A DNA stretch of 64,000 nt from a bacterium (lineage in GTDB: Bacteria; Patescibacteriota; Microgenomatia; Levybacterales; UBA12049): positions 160,142 to 224,141 of the forward strand of contig JAJYDJ010000001.1 in the NCBI GenBank assembly GCA_021777565.1, read 5' to 3'. The notes under the pieces are model-generated. The model worked only from the letters and a program-made list of their open reading frames with translations. It was not told the DNA's origin and did not search any database. Below are positions 9,751-32,622 of the stretch, piece by piece (position 1 is the first letter of the stretch; every line of letters begins with the position of its first letter). The translations under genes and the position numbers were made by a program.

Positions 9751-10980
9751 ATGGGAAAAGAAAAGATTTATCTAGGATTTCTCTTGGGATTTTGGTTATT
9801 ACAGCTCCTTTGTGGTGCTGGGCTTCTCTATATCGTTGGTATTAATCAAAATGCGTTACTCTTGCAAGATATACAGTCACGGCTTCATGATGATGTTACG
9901 TATCGGGATGGGAAGTGGGATACATATCGCTATAATGCAGATCCTTCAGTCCCCGGGAATGCGTATTCTGTCTATATGATTACCACGGATGGATTTGTCA
10001 TCGAGAGATGGCATCCAATTCAGGGACTTCTTGATACTTCTGATTTTAAACATTTACTCCAATTACAAACTCCTCAAACAATCACAACTATCACTAATCA
10101 AACTTGGCGTGTCTTTTCATTGCCTATCCAACAATCGGGGAGTGTTATTGGTGTCATTACGGTCTCATCGTTTACCCCAACAGACATGGACATGGGACAA
10201 ATTGATAGTGCACTTGAGGACAATGCACATGTTATCCTTGATCATTTGACGGTAAAAAATGGCATTATCTCTGCACGAAACCTTGATGTCAGGGCGATCC
10301 CATACACACTTTCTTTTCAAGTGGTCAATCAATTTAATAAAATTATTGTCAAAAATAATAACTTTAATAGTATTGATCGCTTACCAAATTTTATTGATCC
10401 TAGTTATGTCGATAACGCACTGCATAGTCCACATGAGCGAGTGGTTGCAGATAGTCTCACGGGTGAACATTATTATGTTGTTACCTCAGCGCTTACTGAT
10501 GCCAAGGGGACAGTGCGTGGCGTGATAGTGGTGACAAAGTCGATTAGCTATCTCTATCATCTCTTACTCTGGTACTTCATTGGTCAGCTAGGCGTAGGCA
10601 TCTTGAGCAGTGTGGTGCTCTCATGGTATGTCACTCTACATCCACTCACCCCGGCAAAGGAGAAACCGCTCACCTTTGTTCACTTTGATAAAAAGACCTC
10701 GGTCCTTTCCTTGAATGAATTTGACATGGTTATCCCTTTCGCTACCAATCAATATTATCTTTGTGAGGCGATTTGTGCCCATCCAAAAAAGAAATGGGAG
10801 GTAGGGGAGCTACTTGATCGATTTGGGATTGAGGCGAGCAGTGAGAATGCCCGCAAAGTGTATGACGCGATGCTGCTTCTCAATAAGAAAATTATGACAG
10901 TACAATCAAAGCGTCTGGTGATGATGCAGGATAGACGATATTTCTGTAATCCAGAACTTGCCGCACTGATTTCTTCATAA
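9751..10980 (+). CDS. two-TM membrane protein with a ~250-aa extracytoplasmic domain (sensor-like, no output domain), hypothetical
   Basis: TM1 at residues 5-30 and TM2 near 270-295; TATAAT (-10) lies 12 nt upstream of the ATG. Confidence 0.45.
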   Translation: MGKEKIYLGFLLGFWLLQLLCGAGLLYIVGINQNALLLQDIQSRLHDDVTYRDGKWDTYRYNADPSVPGNAYSVYMITTDGFVIERWHPIQGLLDTSDFKHLLQLQTPQTITTITNQTWRVFSLPIQQSGSVIGVITVSSFTPTDMDMGQIDSALEDNAHVILDHLTVKNGIISARNLDVRAIPYTLSFQVVNQFNKIIVKNNNFNSIDRLPNFIDPSYVDNALHSPHERVVADSLTGEHYYVVTSALTDAKGTVRGVIVVTKSISYLYHLLLWYFIGQLGVGILSSVVLSWYVTLHPLTPAKEKPLTFVHFDKKTSVLSLNEFDMVIPFATNQYYLCEAICAHPKKKWEVGELLDRFGIEASSENARKVYDAMLLLNKKIMTVQSKRLVMMQDRRYFCNPELAALISS

Positions 10981-17567: not shown

Positions 17568-18896
17568 ATGCTTCAAAAGACTGATAAAGAAGTGTATGAT
17601 CTGATTCAAAAAGAAGAAGAACGTCAGCGTGACGGATTGGAAATGATCCCCTCAGAGAACTATACCAGCGCAGAAGTACGTGAATGCCTCGGCTCAATTC
17701 TTACGAATAAATATTCAGAAGGGTACCCAAAAAAGAGATATTACGGTGGAAATGAATTTATCGATGAAATCGAGATATTAGCGCAAAATCGAGCAAAAAA
17801 GTTGTTCGATGTTCCTCATGCCAATGTACAGCCATATTCTGGGAGTCCAGCGAATTTTGCGGTCTATGTGGCAGTGTGTGAACCAGGCGACAGCGTCATG
17901 GGACTCAATCTTCCTGATGGTGGCCATCTGACTCATGGGTGGAAAGCATCCGCAACCGCAAAGTTTTTTGACTCTCATCCCTACCATGTAAAGCCTGACG
18001 GTCATGTCGATATTGATGAAGCATGGAAGATCGCCAAAGAGTACAAACCCAAGCTTATTTGGGCTGGAGCCACTGCATATATGTATCAGTATGAATTTGA
18101 GAAGTTTGCCGAGATTGCAGATAGTGTTGGGGCTTACTTTGCTACAGATATAGCCCATGTTGCAGGATTGGTCGCTGCAGGCTCCCACCCAAGTCCAGTG
18201 CCTTATGCACATATCGTTACGACTACCACGCATAAGACACTTCGTGGTCCACGTGGTGGCATGATCATGGTGACTGAGAAAGGTCTTGCCAAGGATCCAG
18301 ACTTGGGTAAAAAAATTGACGCGGCTATTTTCCCTGGTATTCAGGGAGGTCCACACAATCATCAGACAGCAGCTATTGCCGTGGCACTTGAACAAGCGAT
18401 GACGCCTGCATTCAAAGAGTATGGCCAGCAGATAGTCACCAATGCGAAAGCCCTGGCAGAAGCCCTGAAAAAAGAAGGATTGACCTTGGTTGGCAATGGT
18501 ACGGAAAATCATCTGATTTTAATTAATCTTGTCCCCTTGATGGGACCTGGTGGAGGAGCACTTGCCGAGCATGCTTTGGGACTTATCAATATTACGATGA
18601 ATAAAAATACTATTCCTGCCGAACCAGCCTCACCTTTCTTCCCAAGTGGTCTCCGTCTAGGTACCCCGACACTGACTACCCGTGGCATGAAAGAGGATGA
18701 TATGGGTAAAGTCGCTCACTGGATAGCGGCAGCACTGCATGAGATTAAGGATTATCATATGCCTGAGGAGAAAGAAGCACGACCCAAATACGTCAAAGAA
18801 TTTAAAGAAAAGATTGAAGGGAATGCAAATCTTATGAAGCTCCGTCAGGAGGTTATTGCCTTTGCTCATGATTTCCCAGTAGAACCTACCCTCTGA
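17568..18896 (+). CDS. glyA: serine hydroxymethyltransferase
   Basis: SHMT motifs EMIPSENYTS, GSPANFAVY and the PLP-lysine region TTTTHKTLRGPRGG. Confidence 0.95.
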   Translation: MLQKTDKEVYDLIQKEEERQRDGLEMIPSENYTSAEVRECLGSILTNKYSEGYPKKRYYGGNEFIDEIEILAQNRAKKLFDVPHANVQPYSGSPANFAVYVAVCEPGDSVMGLNLPDGGHLTHGWKASATAKFFDSHPYHVKPDGHVDIDEAWKIAKEYKPKLIWAGATAYMYQYEFEKFAEIADSVGAYFATDIAHVAGLVAAGSHPSPVPYAHIVTTTTHKTLRGPRGGMIMVTEKGLAKDPDLGKKIDAAIFPGIQGGPHNHQTAAIAVALEQAMTPAFKEYGQQIVTNAKALAEALKKEGLTLVGNGTENHLILINLVPLMGPGGGALAEHALGLINITMNKNTIPAEPASPFFPSGLRLGTPTLTTRGMKEDDMGKVAHWIAAALHEIKDYHMPEEKEARPKYVKEFKEKIEGNANLMKLRQEVIAFAHDFPVEPTL

Positions 18897-18940: not shown

Positions 18941-19017
18941 GGTGGCTGTAGCTCAGTTGGTTAGAGCGTCAGTTTGTGGTACTGAATGTCGCGGGTCCGA
19001 ATCCCGTCAGCCACCCA
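18941..19017 (+). tRNA. tRNA-His(GUG) with genomically encoded G-1
   Basis: G-1 plus acceptor GTGGCTG/CAGCCAC, C73 pairing with G-1, anticodon loop TTGTGGT (GUG), T-loop TCCGAAT. Confidence 0.9.
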
Positions 19018-19097: not shown

Positions 19098-19127
19098 TTG
19101 CAAAAGAGTATTGTATGATGGCATACT
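19098..19127 (+). promoter_or_regulatory. candidate promoter for the metK leader
   Basis: TTGCAA (-35), 17-18-nt spacer, CATACT (-10), ending about 6 nt before riboswitch helix P1. Confidence 0.3.
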
Positions 19128-19132
19128 AACTA

Positions 19133-19216
19133 TGCATTCAGAGAGATAGGAGAGTATCGGCTCGTACCTATCCGGCAACCCTTCATAGCATGGGTGCCAA
19201 ACCGACATAGAATGTG
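19133..19216 (+). promoter_or_regulatory. SAM-I-clan (S-box-like) riboswitch in the metK 5' leader
   Basis: P1 TGCATTC...GAATGTG; conserved blocks AGAGAGATAGGAGAG (compare AAGAGAGGUGGAGGGA), CCGGCAACC (J3/4 GGCAACC) and GGGTGCCAA (compare UGGUGCCAA); located 15 nt upstream of the metK ATG. Confidence 0.5.
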
Positions 19217-19230
19217 ATTTTAGATAAACT

Positions 19231-20337
19231 ATGCAAGACTACACGTTTACTTCAGAATCTGTTTGTAGCGGACACCCCGATAAAGTGTGTGATCAAATAA
19301 GTGATGGTATCGTCGATGCAGTCCTTTCAAAAGATCCTCGTGGGAGGGTTGCGATGGAAGCACTCGTTACTGAAAATAAGATTGTACTCGCAGGAGAAGT
19401 GACGACTTCTGCAAAAGTTGATTTTGAAGCTATCACTAGGCAAGTTATAAAAGACCTAGACTATACTGATTCTCGATTTCGATTTACTCATGAATCTTCT
19501 CTGGACATGTATATCCACGAGCAGTCTCCTGAAATTGCTGCTGGCGTAGATGAAGAAGGAGCTGGAGATCAAGGGATGATGTTTGGGTATGCGTGTCATG
19601 AAACACCTGAGCTGATGCCATTACCAATCACACTTGCTCATCGTATGGCGCAGAAAATTGACGATGTAAGAAAATCTAAAGTCATTGCATATCTTCGCCC
19701 TGATGGGAAGACACAGGTGAGTGTACGATATGAGAATGGAAAGCCTGTCGCTATTACATCGGTTGTCATTGCTGTCCCTCATGAGGAAGAGAAGCAATTA
19801 AAAGAAGTACGCAATAGCTTGTATAGAGAAGTTGTCAGTCCTGTTTTGGCCGCGTATGGTTTTACATTCCCAGAGGATCAAGTCATTGTGAATGGAACAG
19901 GCATTTGGCACATTGGCGGACCGGCCAGTGATACAGGACTTACAGGGCGTAAAATTGTTGTGGATGGCTATGGTGGGTATGCCAGGGTAGGTGGGGGTGC
20001 TTTTTCTGGGAAAGACCCAACAAAGGTTGATCGATCAGGGGCGTATGCTGCACGATTTCTGGCAAAAAATATTGTTGCAAAAGGGTTAGCAGAGAGAGCT
20101 GAAGTGAGACTAGCTTACTTTATCGGAGCAAAAAAACCGTTGATGCAAGACGTTGAAACATTCGGAACAGAAAAAGTCTTGAGAGAACATATTCAAAAGT
20201 TCATGCATGAGATTTTAGATACATCAGTCGCTGGTATCCTCAAAACGTTGAATTTACGAACACCTATCTATAAAAATACTGCTGCCTATGGGCATTTCGG
20301 TCGGAGTGAGTTCCCGTGGGAAAAAATTGTGGCATGA
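19231..20337 (+). CDS. metK: S-adenosylmethionine synthetase
   Basis: SESVCSGHPDKVCDQISD, GAGDQGMMFGYA and GGGAFSGKDPTKVDRS motifs. Confidence 0.95.
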   Translation: MQDYTFTSESVCSGHPDKVCDQISDGIVDAVLSKDPRGRVAMEALVTENKIVLAGEVTTSAKVDFEAITRQVIKDLDYTDSRFRFTHESSLDMYIHEQSPEIAAGVDEEGAGDQGMMFGYACHETPELMPLPITLAHRMAQKIDDVRKSKVIAYLRPDGKTQVSVRYENGKPVAITSVVIAVPHEEEKQLKEVRNSLYREVVSPVLAAYGFTFPEDQVIVNGTGIWHIGGPASDTGLTGRKIVVDGYGGYARVGGGAFSGKDPTKVDRSGAYAARFLAKNIVAKGLAERAEVRLAYFIGAKKPLMQDVETFGTEKVLREHIQKFMHEILDTSVAGILKTLNLRTPIYKNTAAYGHFGRSEFPWEKIVA

Positions 20338-21549: not shown

Positions 21550-21646
21550 ACCTCTATCACACACATTCAGTACTAAATCCTGACTGATGACAGTTCAGAC
21601 TGAATGGAGGAGTCCCGCCTACGGCGAGGCGAAGAAGGATTTAATT

Positions 21647-30924: not shown

Positions 30925-31137
30925 CCATGGACAAACGGAGGTGTTTCTGTCATACTTTTATCAAAGCTTTGGAAGGATCCCAACCTTTCTCCGTCAACCG
31001 ATGGAAAGCTGGCTGCGATGAGCAGTCCCGGAGGCAAAACCGTAAAAGATGAGTGCACCAACCAAGGTGGTACCACGCGAGTAAGCGTCCTTGTAAATGC
31101 CTGAAAACATGCAGGTGTTTATAAGGGCGTTTTTTGT
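30925..31137 (+). promoter_or_regulatory. T-box riboswitch leader (tRNA-Pro sensing) upstream of proS
   Basis: T-box sequence AAGGTGGTACCACGCG (compare AGGGUGGNACCGCG), candidate Stem I ACGGAG...CTCCGT enclosing AAGG-ATCCCAA-CCTT with a CCC/CCA Pro codon followed by a purine, then the terminator 31086-31137. Confidence 0.55.
31086..31137 (+). terminator. intrinsic terminator of the proS T-box leader
   Basis: CGTCCTTGT...ATAAGGGCG 9-bp stem (two G-U pairs) followed by TTTTTTGTT; ends 13 nt before the proS ATG. Confidence 0.5.
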
Positions 31138-31149
31138 TAGACTAAACAT

Positions 31150-32622
31150 ATGGCATATCAAAATACATTACCGAAAAAGTCAGAAGATTTATCAGCCTGG
31201 TACAACCAGATTGTGCTGTCTGCTGAACTTGCTGACTATGGTCCTGCGAAAGGCACCATGATTTTCCGTCCGTATGGCTATCGTATCTGGGAGCTTGTGC
31301 AGGAAGCTATGGACAAGCGTATCAAAGATCATGGCGTGGATAATGCGTACTTCCCACTTTTTATTCCTGAAAGTTTTCTCAAGCGTGAGAAAGAGCATGT
31401 AGAAGGATTTGCTCCTGAGCTGGCCGTTGTCACGGTCGGTGGGGGAGAAGAATTGGAAGAAAAGTTAGTAGTCAGACCTACCAGTGAGACTATCATGTAT
31501 GATGCCTACAGTCGTTGGATACAATCCTGGCGAGATCTACCAATCCTTATTAATCAGTGGAATAACGTGGTTCGTTGGGAGAAGCGAACATATCTCTTCC
31601 TTCGTACGACAGAATTTTTGTGGCAGGAAGGGCATACGGCACATGCGACCCATGAAGATGCGGTGGATACCCAGAAGTGGGCCATGCAGATGTATGCGGA
31701 TATCTATAAAGAATACTTTGCACTTCCAGGAATCGTTGGGTACAAATCACAATCTGAAAAGTTTGCAGGAGCCGACGCCACGTTAACCTATGAATCACTC
31801 ATGCCAGAAGGAAAAGCACTGCAGGCATGTACGTCCCATGATCTTGGACAAAATTTCGCCAAAGCATTTAACATCTCATTCCAGGATAAAGAGGGGAAAT
31901 CTGAATATGCCTGGCAGACGAGTTGGGGCTTTTCAACACGTTCACTTGGTGGTCTTTTCATGGCACACGGTGATGATAAAGGACTAGTCTTGCCACCGAA
32001 ACTGGCACCGATTAAAGTAGTGATTCTTCCTGTCTTAGGAAAGGATGATAAAAAAGTATTAGATTTTTGCGAGGAAATAAAAAAGTCCATTAAGGCTGTC
32101 GACTCCCAGTTCTTAGGCAAAGTTGAGGTTTTGGATCAAGATTGGAAGAGTATCGGATGGAAAGCAAGTGACGCAGAGATGAGAGGTATACCTATAATAA
32201 TTCCTGTTGGGCTCAAGGAGGCAGAAGGTGGAGACATTAAGATACAAACAAGAATTGAAGGATATTTTAAAGACGAGAATACATATGGGAATCTAGTCCC
32301 TGTTACCTCTGAAAACATTGGGGCAGAAGTCGAACGTGTCTTGTCTTTGATCCAAGGTAGATTATTAGAGAATGCCCAGAAGTTCTTAAAGGAAAATACA
32401 CATATAGTAAACTCATATGACGAGTTGAAGAAATATATGGAAACGACCAAAGGATTCTTAAAAGCATTCTGGTGTGAAGACGCGACCTGTGAATCAAAGA
32501 TCAAAGAAGAAACCAAGGCAACCACTCGCTGTCTGCCTCTTGATGCTCCCGAGGAATCCGGGAAGTGCGTCTACTGCGGGAAAGATGCCACGCATCGCTG
32601 GATCTTTGCACAAGCCTACTAA
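31150..32622 (+). CDS. proS: prolyl-tRNA synthetase, archaeal/eukaryotic-type
   Basis: Class II motifs (FRPYGYRIW, RWEKRTYLFLRTTEFLWQEGHTAH), C-terminal Zn-binding Cys cluster, no bacterial-type insertion domain. Confidence 0.93.
   Translation: MAYQNTLPKKSEDLSAWYNQIVLSAELADYGPAKGTMIFRPYGYRIWELVQEAMDKRIKDHGVDNAYFPLFIPESFLKREKEHVEGFAPELAVVTVGGGEELEEKLVVRPTSETIMYDAYSRWIQSWRDLPILINQWNNVVRWEKRTYLFLRTTEFLWQEGHTAHATHEDAVDTQKWAMQMYADIYKEYFALPGIVGYKSQSEKFAGADATLTYESLMPEGKALQACTSHDLGQNFAKAFNISFQDKEGKSEYAWQTSWGFSTRSLGGLFMAHGDDKGLVLPPKLAPIKVVILPVLGKDDKKVLDFCEEIKKSIKAVDSQFLGKVEVLDQDWKSIGWKASDAEMRGIPIIIPVGLKEAEGGDIKIQTRIEGYFKDENTYGNLVPVTSENIGAEVERVLSLIQGRLLENAQKFLKENTHIVNSYDELKKYMETTKGFLKAFWCEDATCESKIKEETKATTRCLPLDAPEESGKCVYCGKDATHRWIFAQAY

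Follow-up and report, generated by a model that had tools for sequence, protein, structure and literature searches.

Riboswitches that respond to S-adenosylmethionine (SAM) in front of metK are textbook material; within the SAM clan (Rfam CL00012), SAM-IV comes mainly from Actinomycetales and mostly acts on translation. By the published definitions that we adopted (Weinberg et al., 2010, PMC2864571; Zhang et al., 2019, PMC6890682), SAM-I has a kink-turn in helix P2, a P4 helix and the pseudoknot PK-1, with neither the pseudoknot PK-2 nor a 3' hairpin; SAM-IV has a small turn in P2, no P4, PK-1, and PK-2 together with a P5 hairpin; and SAM-I/IV has an undivided P2, a short P4, no PK-1, and PK-2 with a 3' hairpin. 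PK-2 is one of the defining elements of SAM-IV and SAM-I/IV (Zhang et al., 2019), and riboswitches that act as OFF switches by direct occlusion have been reviewed as a class (PMC10907184). Here we analysed a 64,000-nucleotide (nt) stretch of contig JAJYDJ010000001.1 (hereafter the window), in which the original prediction had placed a SAM-I-clan riboswitch candidate at positions 19098-19230, ahead of metK. The candidate held up: a covariance model built without the window's sequence and covariation in related leaders both supported clan homology, and the sequence evidence points to a genuine SAM-clan riboswitch that controls metK, lacks P4 and carries PK-1. What is new is this P4-less, PK-1-bearing form, in which the metK start codon is probably buried. 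The predicted extent was too wide, since the aptamer proper (P1, P2, P3 and the conserved core) occupies 19134-19216 on the plus strand and 19098-19127 is its promoter.

Homology of the metK leader to the SAM clan

For comparison, we collected the DNA around twelve MetK homologues (66-76% identity), three loci from a MetK scan of genome contigs, which revealed at least three close relatives, and loci from a pattern scan of metagenome DNA; most of what the last yielded was classical high-GC SAM-I elements and chance matches in coding sequence, and its only useful loci were L089, L155, L164, L128 and L188. Locus L081 is in essence the same organism as the window (MetK 99% identical, aptamer identical), and the closest MetK homologues carry the labels Patescibacteria, Levyibacteriota and Daviesbacteria. 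The leaders of the relatives fell into two architectures. Type A (the window, L082, L205, L206, L207, L210, L211, L212 and L213) has in its 5' part P1, P2 with a characteristic loop (GAGAGU..GGCUC) and P3, then a junction of 11-12 nt (AAACCGAC...) without P4, and after the 3' strand of P1 an optional short hairpin, an A-rich stretch and the AUG, with no terminator. Type B (L083, L084, L001, L002 and L208/L209) has a P4 of 3-5 base pairs (bp) capped by a tetraloop, a hairpin after P1 and, in L083, L084, L208, L001 and L002, a clear stem and U-run terminator that often touches the ATG. Leader type was also read from MetK gene calls that extend upstream (GAKPT = GGTGCCAAACCGAC; RGFFM = GAGGTTTTTTTATG, the latter in the N-terminal extensions of P0018, P0050, P0059, P0062, P0082, P0096, P0099, P0107 and P0108), which added at least nine further lineages of type A and at least ten of the terminator type.

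At gathering thresholds, the only Rfam matches in the 64-kilobase (kb) window were the 16S rRNA and four tRNAs. With permissive filters, the sole riboswitch-class match in the window was SAM-I/IV (RF01725) at 19129-19241, scoring 36.9 bits against a gathering score of 41.1 (E = 1.3e-4 when the 301-nt leader was searched; E = 0.027 for the whole window and all 4227 families). Overlapping matches to SAM-I and SAM-IV were suppressed by clan competition: SAM-I (RF00162) scored below 36.9 bits and thus under its threshold of 44.4, and SAM-IV (RF00634) had E < 10 with a score also below that of the SAM-I/IV match. The Infernal comparison with SAM-I and SAM-I/IV that the original prediction had proposed was accordingly negative for the window copy and positive for some of its relatives, since L210 (type A) passed as SAM-I (45.9 bits) and L083 and L084 (type B) passed as SAM-I/IV (49.7 and 49.2 bits, respectively). 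Below threshold were the type-A leaders L082 (38.0 bits), L211 (32.4 bits), L212 (29.6 bits) and L205 (25.1 bits), all as SAM-I, and the hybrid type-B leader L208 (37.3 bits) as SAM-I/IV; L206 and L213, both of type A, had no Rfam match at E < 1.

We then scored the window with a leave-one-out covariance model (R2) made from seven related leaders, the window being excluded. R2 gave 87.7 bits (E = 2.7e-23), and this was its single match in 64 kb. A second model (R1), trained on type-A leaders only and including the window, detected elements in many Firmicutes loci, 100-250 nt ahead of metK (20-31 bits), and these are SAM-I elements according to Rfam (77-91 bits). Because of the R2 score and because the Firmicutes matches of R1 are SAM-I by Rfam, we consider the homology of the leader to the SAM clan secure on these sequence comparisons. 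The original prediction had suggested looking for the same element elsewhere, and there the outcome was negative, as R1 found no second copy in the 64-kb window with filters off; a weak match at 21572-21645 (12.8 bits, E = 0.52) was treated as noise.

Formal counts of base pairs were restricted to A3, a structure-blind MAFFT alignment of eight distinct type-A aptamers, since A2 (MAFFT, 17 aptamers of mixed architecture) and A4 (model-guided) misplace or truncate the 3' strand of P1 where P4 is present. The counts span P1, P2a, P2b, P3 and PK-1. Standard pairs filled 98.1% of the cells, compared with 29-41% when the 3' partners were slid by one to three columns. Seven pairs had changed on both sides, a count that one of 500 shuffles reached, and the covariation score was 0.266 against 0.154 ± 0.019 in shuffles (reached by 0 of 500); each of the five helices contained at least one compensatory pair. 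The original prediction had also called for a check of a pseudoknot between the P2 loop and the junction, and this pseudoknot, PK-1 (UCGG 19157-19160 with CCGA 19202-19205), is present and covaries: in A3 all of its cells pair, with column pair 81/159 being CG in five leaders, UG in two and UA in one, and 14 leaders preserve it with five different sequence solutions (UCGG/CCGA, UUGG/CCAA, CUGG/CCAG, UUUGG/CCAAA and CUAG/CUAG). These results bear on the idea that the leader resembles a riboswitch by chance, in an AT-rich intergenic spacer. The sub-threshold Rfam score would suit that idea, as would the fold of the single sequence, for the unconstrained minimum-free-energy structure of 19125-19245 does give the P1/P2/P3 junction but with a z-score of just -1.7. 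The idea is nevertheless refuted by the leave-one-out score and by covariation in five helices, and in over 10 independent contigs a leader occupies the corresponding position ahead of metK; we give chance practically no weight. The leader is strongly conserved, with covariation, in front of metK in related Patescibacteria, and the original prediction, which would have been refuted had an above-threshold covariance-model match and conservation in relatives both been lacking, stands.

Anatomy of the window aptamer

P1 pairs GCAUUC (19134-19139, +) with GAAUGU(G) (19210-19216, +). In A3 this is helix 1, with columns 4-9 paired to columns 165-170 in 100% of the cells; its outermost pair is GC in four leaders, AU in three and GU in one, and in the window U19133 can add a U-G pair with G19216. 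The conserved SAM-clan junction J1/2, AGAGA (19140-19144, +), whose GAG is invariant in the columns of alignments A1 and A3, agrees with the AAGAG of the Rfam SAM-I and SAM-I/IV consensus, and AGAGAGATAGGAGAG (19140-19154) covers J1/2 plus the start of the P2 arm. The P2 arm (19145-19172, +) is composed of P2a (GAUAGG 19145-19150 with CCUAUC 19167-19172; three of six pairs changed on both sides), an internal loop (A19151 opposite G19164-U19165-A19166), P2b (GAG 19152-19154 with CUC 19161-19163; one of three pairs changed on both sides) and the loop UAUCGG (19155-19160), which holds the 5' strand of PK-1 (+ strand). CCGGCAACC was found at 19173-19181, but it forms J2/3 and the 5' strand of P3 and not J3/4, as had been proposed. 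In the P3 arm (19174-19198, +; A3 columns 99-107 with 146-153), GGCA (19174-19177) pairs with UGCC (19195-19198) and CCC (19179-19181) with GGG (19192-19194), A19178 is bulged, and loop 3 occupies 19182-19191; column pair 106/147 is CG in five leaders and UA in three, and GGCAACC and GGUGCC are invariant and agree with the Rfam consensus. GGGTGCCAA lies at 19192-19200. There is no P4 hairpin, as the gap between P3 and P1, J3/1 (AAACCGACAUA, 19199-19209, +), is just 11 nt long and four of these are taken by the 3' strand of PK-1. The sequence blocks listed in the original prediction (TGCATTC 19133-19139 with GAATGTG 19210-19216, AGAGAGATAGGAGAG, CCGGCAACC and GGGTGCCAA) were therefore all in place. 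After P1 comes an A/U-rich linker without a Shine-Dalgarno sequence (19217-19228, +), and the last base of P1 (19216) is 14 nt away from the metK AUG, close by as predicted, though not at the predicted 15 nt.

The SAM-clan core, namely the P1/P3 pocket, J1/2 (A)AGAG, GGCAACC...GGUGCC and the bulged A, is present in the window, and none of its positions varies among eight leaders, whose MetK proteins share 70-76% identity with that of the window. The Rfam SAM-I/IV consensus can be aligned to this core directly, and the SAM-I consensus by way of the relatives. That SAM is the ligand we infer from the identity of the core and from the gene context. A real aptamer fold for another compound, such as S-adenosylhomocysteine or a different adenosyl compound, could be entertained because ligand identity rests here on sequence and because the peripheral architecture is unlike that of the characterised families. 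We regard it as highly improbable: the core is identical to Rfam SAM-I and SAM-I/IV or preserves their base pairs (CAUU/AAUG in P1, GAG in J1/2, GGCAACC and GGUGCC), the core segments cover the residues that lie within 5 Å of SAM (Zhang et al., 2019, PMC6890682), and the controlled genes are metK and a methyltransferase, the genes behind the related elements L164 and L155, respectively.

Outside the core, no other leader that we examined is as reduced as the window copy. A canonical kink-turn is present in L082, L210, L089 and L155; in L205 and L213 its G.A pairs have independently been replaced by Watson-Crick pairs plus a 3-nt bulge. In the window the kink-turn is degenerate, reading CUC-GUA-CC where L082 and L210 carry CUC-GAU/UAU-GA, and P2a is fully Watson-Crick with a 1x3 internal loop where the G.A pairs have been lost. 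The 3' hairpin (P5) has 3-5 bp in L082, L205, L207, L213 and L210; it is lacking in L212 and L206 too, and in the window it is at best a 3-bp vestige (AUU-UUA-GAU, 19217-19225). Together with the loss of P4 and the sub-threshold Rfam score, this reduction could be taken to mean that the leader is a decaying SAM-I relic that no longer switches and leaves metK constitutive. Such decay is hard to reconcile with a core that is invariant across eight leaders, with compensatory changes that maintain all helices and with complementarity that persists for both PK-1 and the proposed PK-2. P4-less leaders moreover occur in at least 12 MetK lineages among the relatives, and a P4-less SAM-I-type core binds SAM in SAM-IV (Zhang et al., 2019, PMC6890682). 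We therefore judge a relic to be unlikely.

Three further observations on the window leader were set aside. A 9-nt direct repeat, AACTATGCA, at 19127-19135 and 19227-19235, brackets the element, probably by coincidence; as another partner for loop 3 this repeat (AACUAUGCA) was rejected because transcription is predicted to start at or after the upstream copy, which is also absent in relatives. A mini open reading frame (ORF), ATGCATTCAGAGAGATAG at 19132, is not conserved and was treated as chance. The minimum-free-energy fold also extends P1 on its 5' side (CUAA/UUAG), and this extension was dismissed as CUAA is upstream of the predicted transcription start.

Two kinds of insertion recur in the peripheral helices of the relatives. 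A branched insertion of ~55 nt in the 5' strand of P2 (L206 1062-1120; L207, which has the same aptamer; L208/L209 ~1020-1078) consists of GGACCGUCC...GGACGGCC and a second small hairpin, makes P2 a junction of several helices and is conserved across the two types, in L206/L207 (type A) and in L208 (type B). A hairpin inserted within P3 (CGGCAAGCU...CUUUGCAAAC) is likewise common to a type-A (L213 ~975-1005) and a type-B leader (L001 ~2255-2290), the PK-2 strand being left as the 3' segment of an internal loop.

Loop 3 and the metK start codon

A plausible promoter just upstream of the element was part of the original prediction, and conservation agrees with it. The extended -10 element TGG-CATACT (19119-19127, +) matches TGnYWWAMT, which ends 6-10 nt upstream of P1 in 12 of 14 related leaders. 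A -35-like hexamer, TTGCAA (19098-19103, +), precedes it with a spacing of 18 nt, and TTGCAA, TTGTCA or TTGTAA is found 17-18 nt before the -10 element in 8 of the 14. The promoter is seen through conservation of the extended -10 across relatives only; a general promoter and terminator scan found nothing. Transcription is predicted to start at about 19133-19135 (~G19134), that is, at the first nucleotides of P1. The absence of an obvious terminator had been noted before, and the terminator scan of the metK leader indeed found no intrinsic one. The leader also lacks a Shine-Dalgarno sequence, though the 16S rRNA ends in CCUCC, leaving the AUG as the only available target. Across the window, Shine-Dalgarno sequences are rare (~6 of 46 crude ORFs), and of 30 ORFs on the plus strand, 14 have a TAnnnT box resembling a -10 element whose end falls 6-8 nt upstream of the ATG, the positions peaking sharply at -7 (for example before the ATGs at 9751, 27151, 29317, 33949, 44014 and 56026), which suggests from sequence that many genes give rise to leaderless mRNAs.

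Loop 3 of the window contains CAUAG (19184-19188, +), which complements CUAUG (19229-19233, +), a segment that includes the metK AUG; these would be the 5' and 3' strands of PK-2. An RNAduplex cross-matrix of loop 3 against the tails did not discriminate, AU-rich tails being common to the leaders, and was for this reason replaced by the longest Watson-Crick match in comparison with shuffles. By this test CAUAG/CUAUG gave p = 0.10 in the window and p = 0.065 in L082, UCAUAG/CUAUGA gave p ~0.01 in L211 and L212, and CAUAUU/AAUAUG, in which a G-C pair has become U-A at position -2 and a U-A pair has been added at -3, gave p = 0.06-0.08 in L205 and L213. The match in L210 is shifted (UAAGU/ACUUA, p = 0.17), and that in L206 and L207 is weak (UUCA/UGAA, p = 0.37-0.55). 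Fisher combination of five lineage p-values for complementarity between loop 3 and the start region yielded ~0.004. Complementarity with the AUG is kept through different sequences in seven of the nine type-A leaders, and the change from CAUAG/CUAUG to CAUAUU/AAUAUG (L205, L213) amounts to one compensatory switch. In type-B leaders, the partner of loop 3 is the stretch of tail that separates the 3' hairpin from the terminator (UGUAU/AUACA in L083; CAUGU/ACAUG in L208), and this pairing is the PK-2 of SAM-IV and SAM-I/IV.

We consider it probable that a SAM-clan aptamer lies at the very 5' end of the metK mRNA and that a SAM-stabilised PK-2 buries the AUG, making the leader an OFF switch; both the formation of PK-2 and the translational OFF logic are inferred from the alignments. 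When SAM is abundant, it would bind between P1 and P3 and stabilise P1 and PK-2, so that CAUAG of loop 3 would pair with the CUAUG that holds the start codon. The AUG would then be buried against a compact aptamer 14 nt away, where ribosomes could not initiate, and MetK synthesis would drop, giving feedback repression of SAM synthesis through direct occlusion.

Several points weigh against this occlusion model. The window lacks both the canonical G.A pairs of the kink-turn and the P5 hairpin, which organise PK-1 and PK-2 in solved relatives, and its affinity or switching could be impaired as a result. The window copy reaches no Rfam gathering score, the transcription start is a prediction, and structure prediction alone leaves the AUG region unpaired. 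As the AUG is invariant, covariation in PK-2 is possible at positions -2 and -3 only, and the individual p-values are just 0.01-0.17, with L206 and L207 weaker still. An alternative is a genuine SAM aptamer that acts on transcription or on the fate of the mRNA, for instance through Rho- or pause-dependent termination in the early coding region or through 5'-end-dependent access of an RNase. In favour of this alternative, PK-2 is only moderately supported and is weak in L206 and L207; neither an intrinsic terminator nor an alternative sequestering hairpin is predicted; the aptamer is predicted at the 5' end of the transcript; and sister lineages work by transcription termination. Against this stand the complementarity between loop 3 and the AUG in seven of nine type-A leaders through different sequences, the fact that the aptamer abuts the AUG in all type-A leaders with spacing that varies by the optional P5 alone, and a sequence that offers no pointer to a Rho site. 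We find action on transcription or mRNA fate possible but less likely, and favour occlusion of the AUG.

The regulated gene, metK (19231-20337, +), encodes an S-adenosylmethionine synthetase of 368 residues whose homologues carry PF00438, PF02772 and PF02773, and its start codon (AUG, 19231-19233) is confirmed by the N-termini of relatives (MQDYTFTSESV in comparison to MNDYIFTSESV and MKDFIFTSESV). Three MetK relatives (P0013, P0025 and P0034) have an odd N-terminal insertion or duplication of ~25 residues (MNDYIFTAPSNSKHKNKNSLAESREKLLSIFTSESV...), with the start MNDYIFT repeated ahead of the conserved IFTSESV. The element lies between tRNA-His (18942-19016), on its 5' side, and metK; serine hydroxymethyltransferase (17568-18896) is upstream of this locus and a YibE/F membrane protein downstream. 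Elsewhere in the window, a sub-threshold match to the T-box leader (30960-31095, +; 27.6 bits against a gathering score of 93; E = 0.034) stands directly 5' of an ORF (31150-32622) that is prolyl-tRNA synthetase by Pfam, and may be a divergent T-box riboswitch.

Family placement and evolution of the leaders

The window shares with SAM-I (RF00162) a P1 with A-U/U-A pairs, AGAG in J1/2, the GGCAACC...GGUGCC of P3 with its bulged A, and PK-1, which joins the P2 loop to the junction strand that follows P3; the kink-turn is kept in the relatives L082 and L210, of which L210 passes the RF00162 threshold, and metK is the commonest target gene of SAM-I. Unlike SAM-I, the window has no P4 helix and therefore a three-way instead of a four-way junction, its kink-turn is without the tandem G.A/A.G pairs that follow a 3-nt bulge in SAM-I, and in place of a terminator/antiterminator platform we propose a pseudoknot between loop 3 and the 3' tail. 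Type A is, by sequence alignment, a SAM-I-type aptamer with P4 deleted, because in the Rfam SAM-I alignment of L210 and L082 the kink-turn, P2 loop, P3 and core match, and 4-5 nt stand against 20-21 P4 positions. Three elements with low GC keep the kink-turn, PK-1 and a full P4 in SAM-I-like form: L155 6405-6517 (+), upstream of an ORF resembling class-I methyltransferases (Pfam Methyltransf_25/11); L164 10804-10910 (-), upstream of a short metK of 350 residues; and L089 6578-6679 (-), upstream of an unknown ORF of 132 residues.

By the published definitions, the topology of the window appears closest to that of SAM-IV (RF00634). Like SAM-IV as seen by cryo-electron microscopy (PMC6890682), it has no P4, a P2 that is broken by a small loop other than a kink-turn, PK-1 and, as proposed here, PK-2 linking loop 3 with the 3' tail beyond P1. 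Unlike in SAM-IV, the PK-2-bearing P5 hairpin is vestigial in the window (it is present in relatives), the proposed PK-2 falls on the AUG and not on a Shine-Dalgarno region, the sequence derives from a SAM-I-like lineage, and the host belongs to the Patescibacteria. As for SAM-I/IV (RF01725), the suggestion in the original prediction that the 3' part is SAM-I/IV-like was right in so far as this family gives the best Rfam match, with a common core, a 3' extension past P1 and a proposed PK-2-type interaction, and the sister leaders L083 and L084 are bona fide members. The window differs from SAM-I/IV in its interrupted P2, its covarying PK-1, its lack of P4 and a score under the gathering threshold, and it carries the SAM-I/IV label only because this model contains no P4 and no kink-turn whose absence could be penalised. 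We would call the element a SAM-I derivative that lacks P4 and has a SAM-IV-like topology, rather than canonical SAM-I/IV. It also recalls SAM-II and preQ1-I (PMC10907184), in which a ligand-stabilised pseudoknot has its 3' strand in the translation-initiation region, without the need for a separate alternative hairpin. What they bury is the Shine-Dalgarno sequence, in a small H-type pseudoknot; here the start codon would be buried, and by a large multi-helix aptamer of the SAM-I type.

Within one Microgenomates-like MetK lineage of Patescibacteria, whose proteins are 66-76% identical to that of the window, most combinations of the peripheral modules of the SAM clan appear to be represented. 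L089 and L155 combine the kink-turn, PK-1 and P4 and are SAM-I-like; L083 and L084, valid SAM-I/IV by Rfam, have a mini-P4, P5 and PK-2 without PK-1; the window and eight others have PK-1 and PK-2 without P4 and are SAM-IV-like; and L208 joins PK-1, mini-P4, P5, PK-2 and a terminator. This hybrid leader (L208 1004-1215, also in L209) carries PK-1 as UCGG/CCGA, the mini-P4 CCC-GAGA-GGG, a hairpin after P1 and PK-2 as CAUGU/ACAUG next to the terminator, and its PK-2 tail contains an AUG that lies 10 codons ahead of metK in the same reading frame. In terminator-type leaders (L083 ~2462-2503; L208 ~1185-1203) the U-run abuts the ATG and the 3' arm of the terminator, GAGAGG, stands at Shine-Dalgarno distance, so that the terminator hairpin could also mask the ribosome-binding site. 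In a crude neighbour-joining tree of MetK, without bootstrap, type-A and terminator-type leaders are interleaved and the outer lineages are of the terminator type, from which we tentatively count two or more switches of platform between terminator and AUG occlusion. It is conceivable, though we would not yet lean towards it, that a single evolving RNA can pass between SAM-I, SAM-I/IV and SAM-IV, which would then not be scaffolds of separate origin. In that case the form in the window would be a minimal end-point suited to a genome without Shine-Dalgarno-led initiation, in which the AUG serves as the regulatory target.

These neighbouring lineages form a natural series in which to study the interconversion of the SAM-I, SAM-IV and SAM-I/IV peripheries. 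With three helices and two pseudoknots (PK-2 being proposed), the window element is among the smallest SAM-I-type architectures, and as it falls below all Rfam thresholds, standard annotation would under-count riboswitches in these phyla; the literature that we searched contained no study of a natural riboswitch in Patescibacteria. Riboswitch-based control has been proposed for Patescibacteria genetics (PMC11665869), and a compact natural OFF switch that is independent of Shine-Dalgarno sequences, as predicted here, is a possible tool for that purpose. For the organisms themselves, the finding would mean that Patescibacteria, in spite of their reduced genomes, have retained feedback by a metabolite on their one SAM-producing enzyme.

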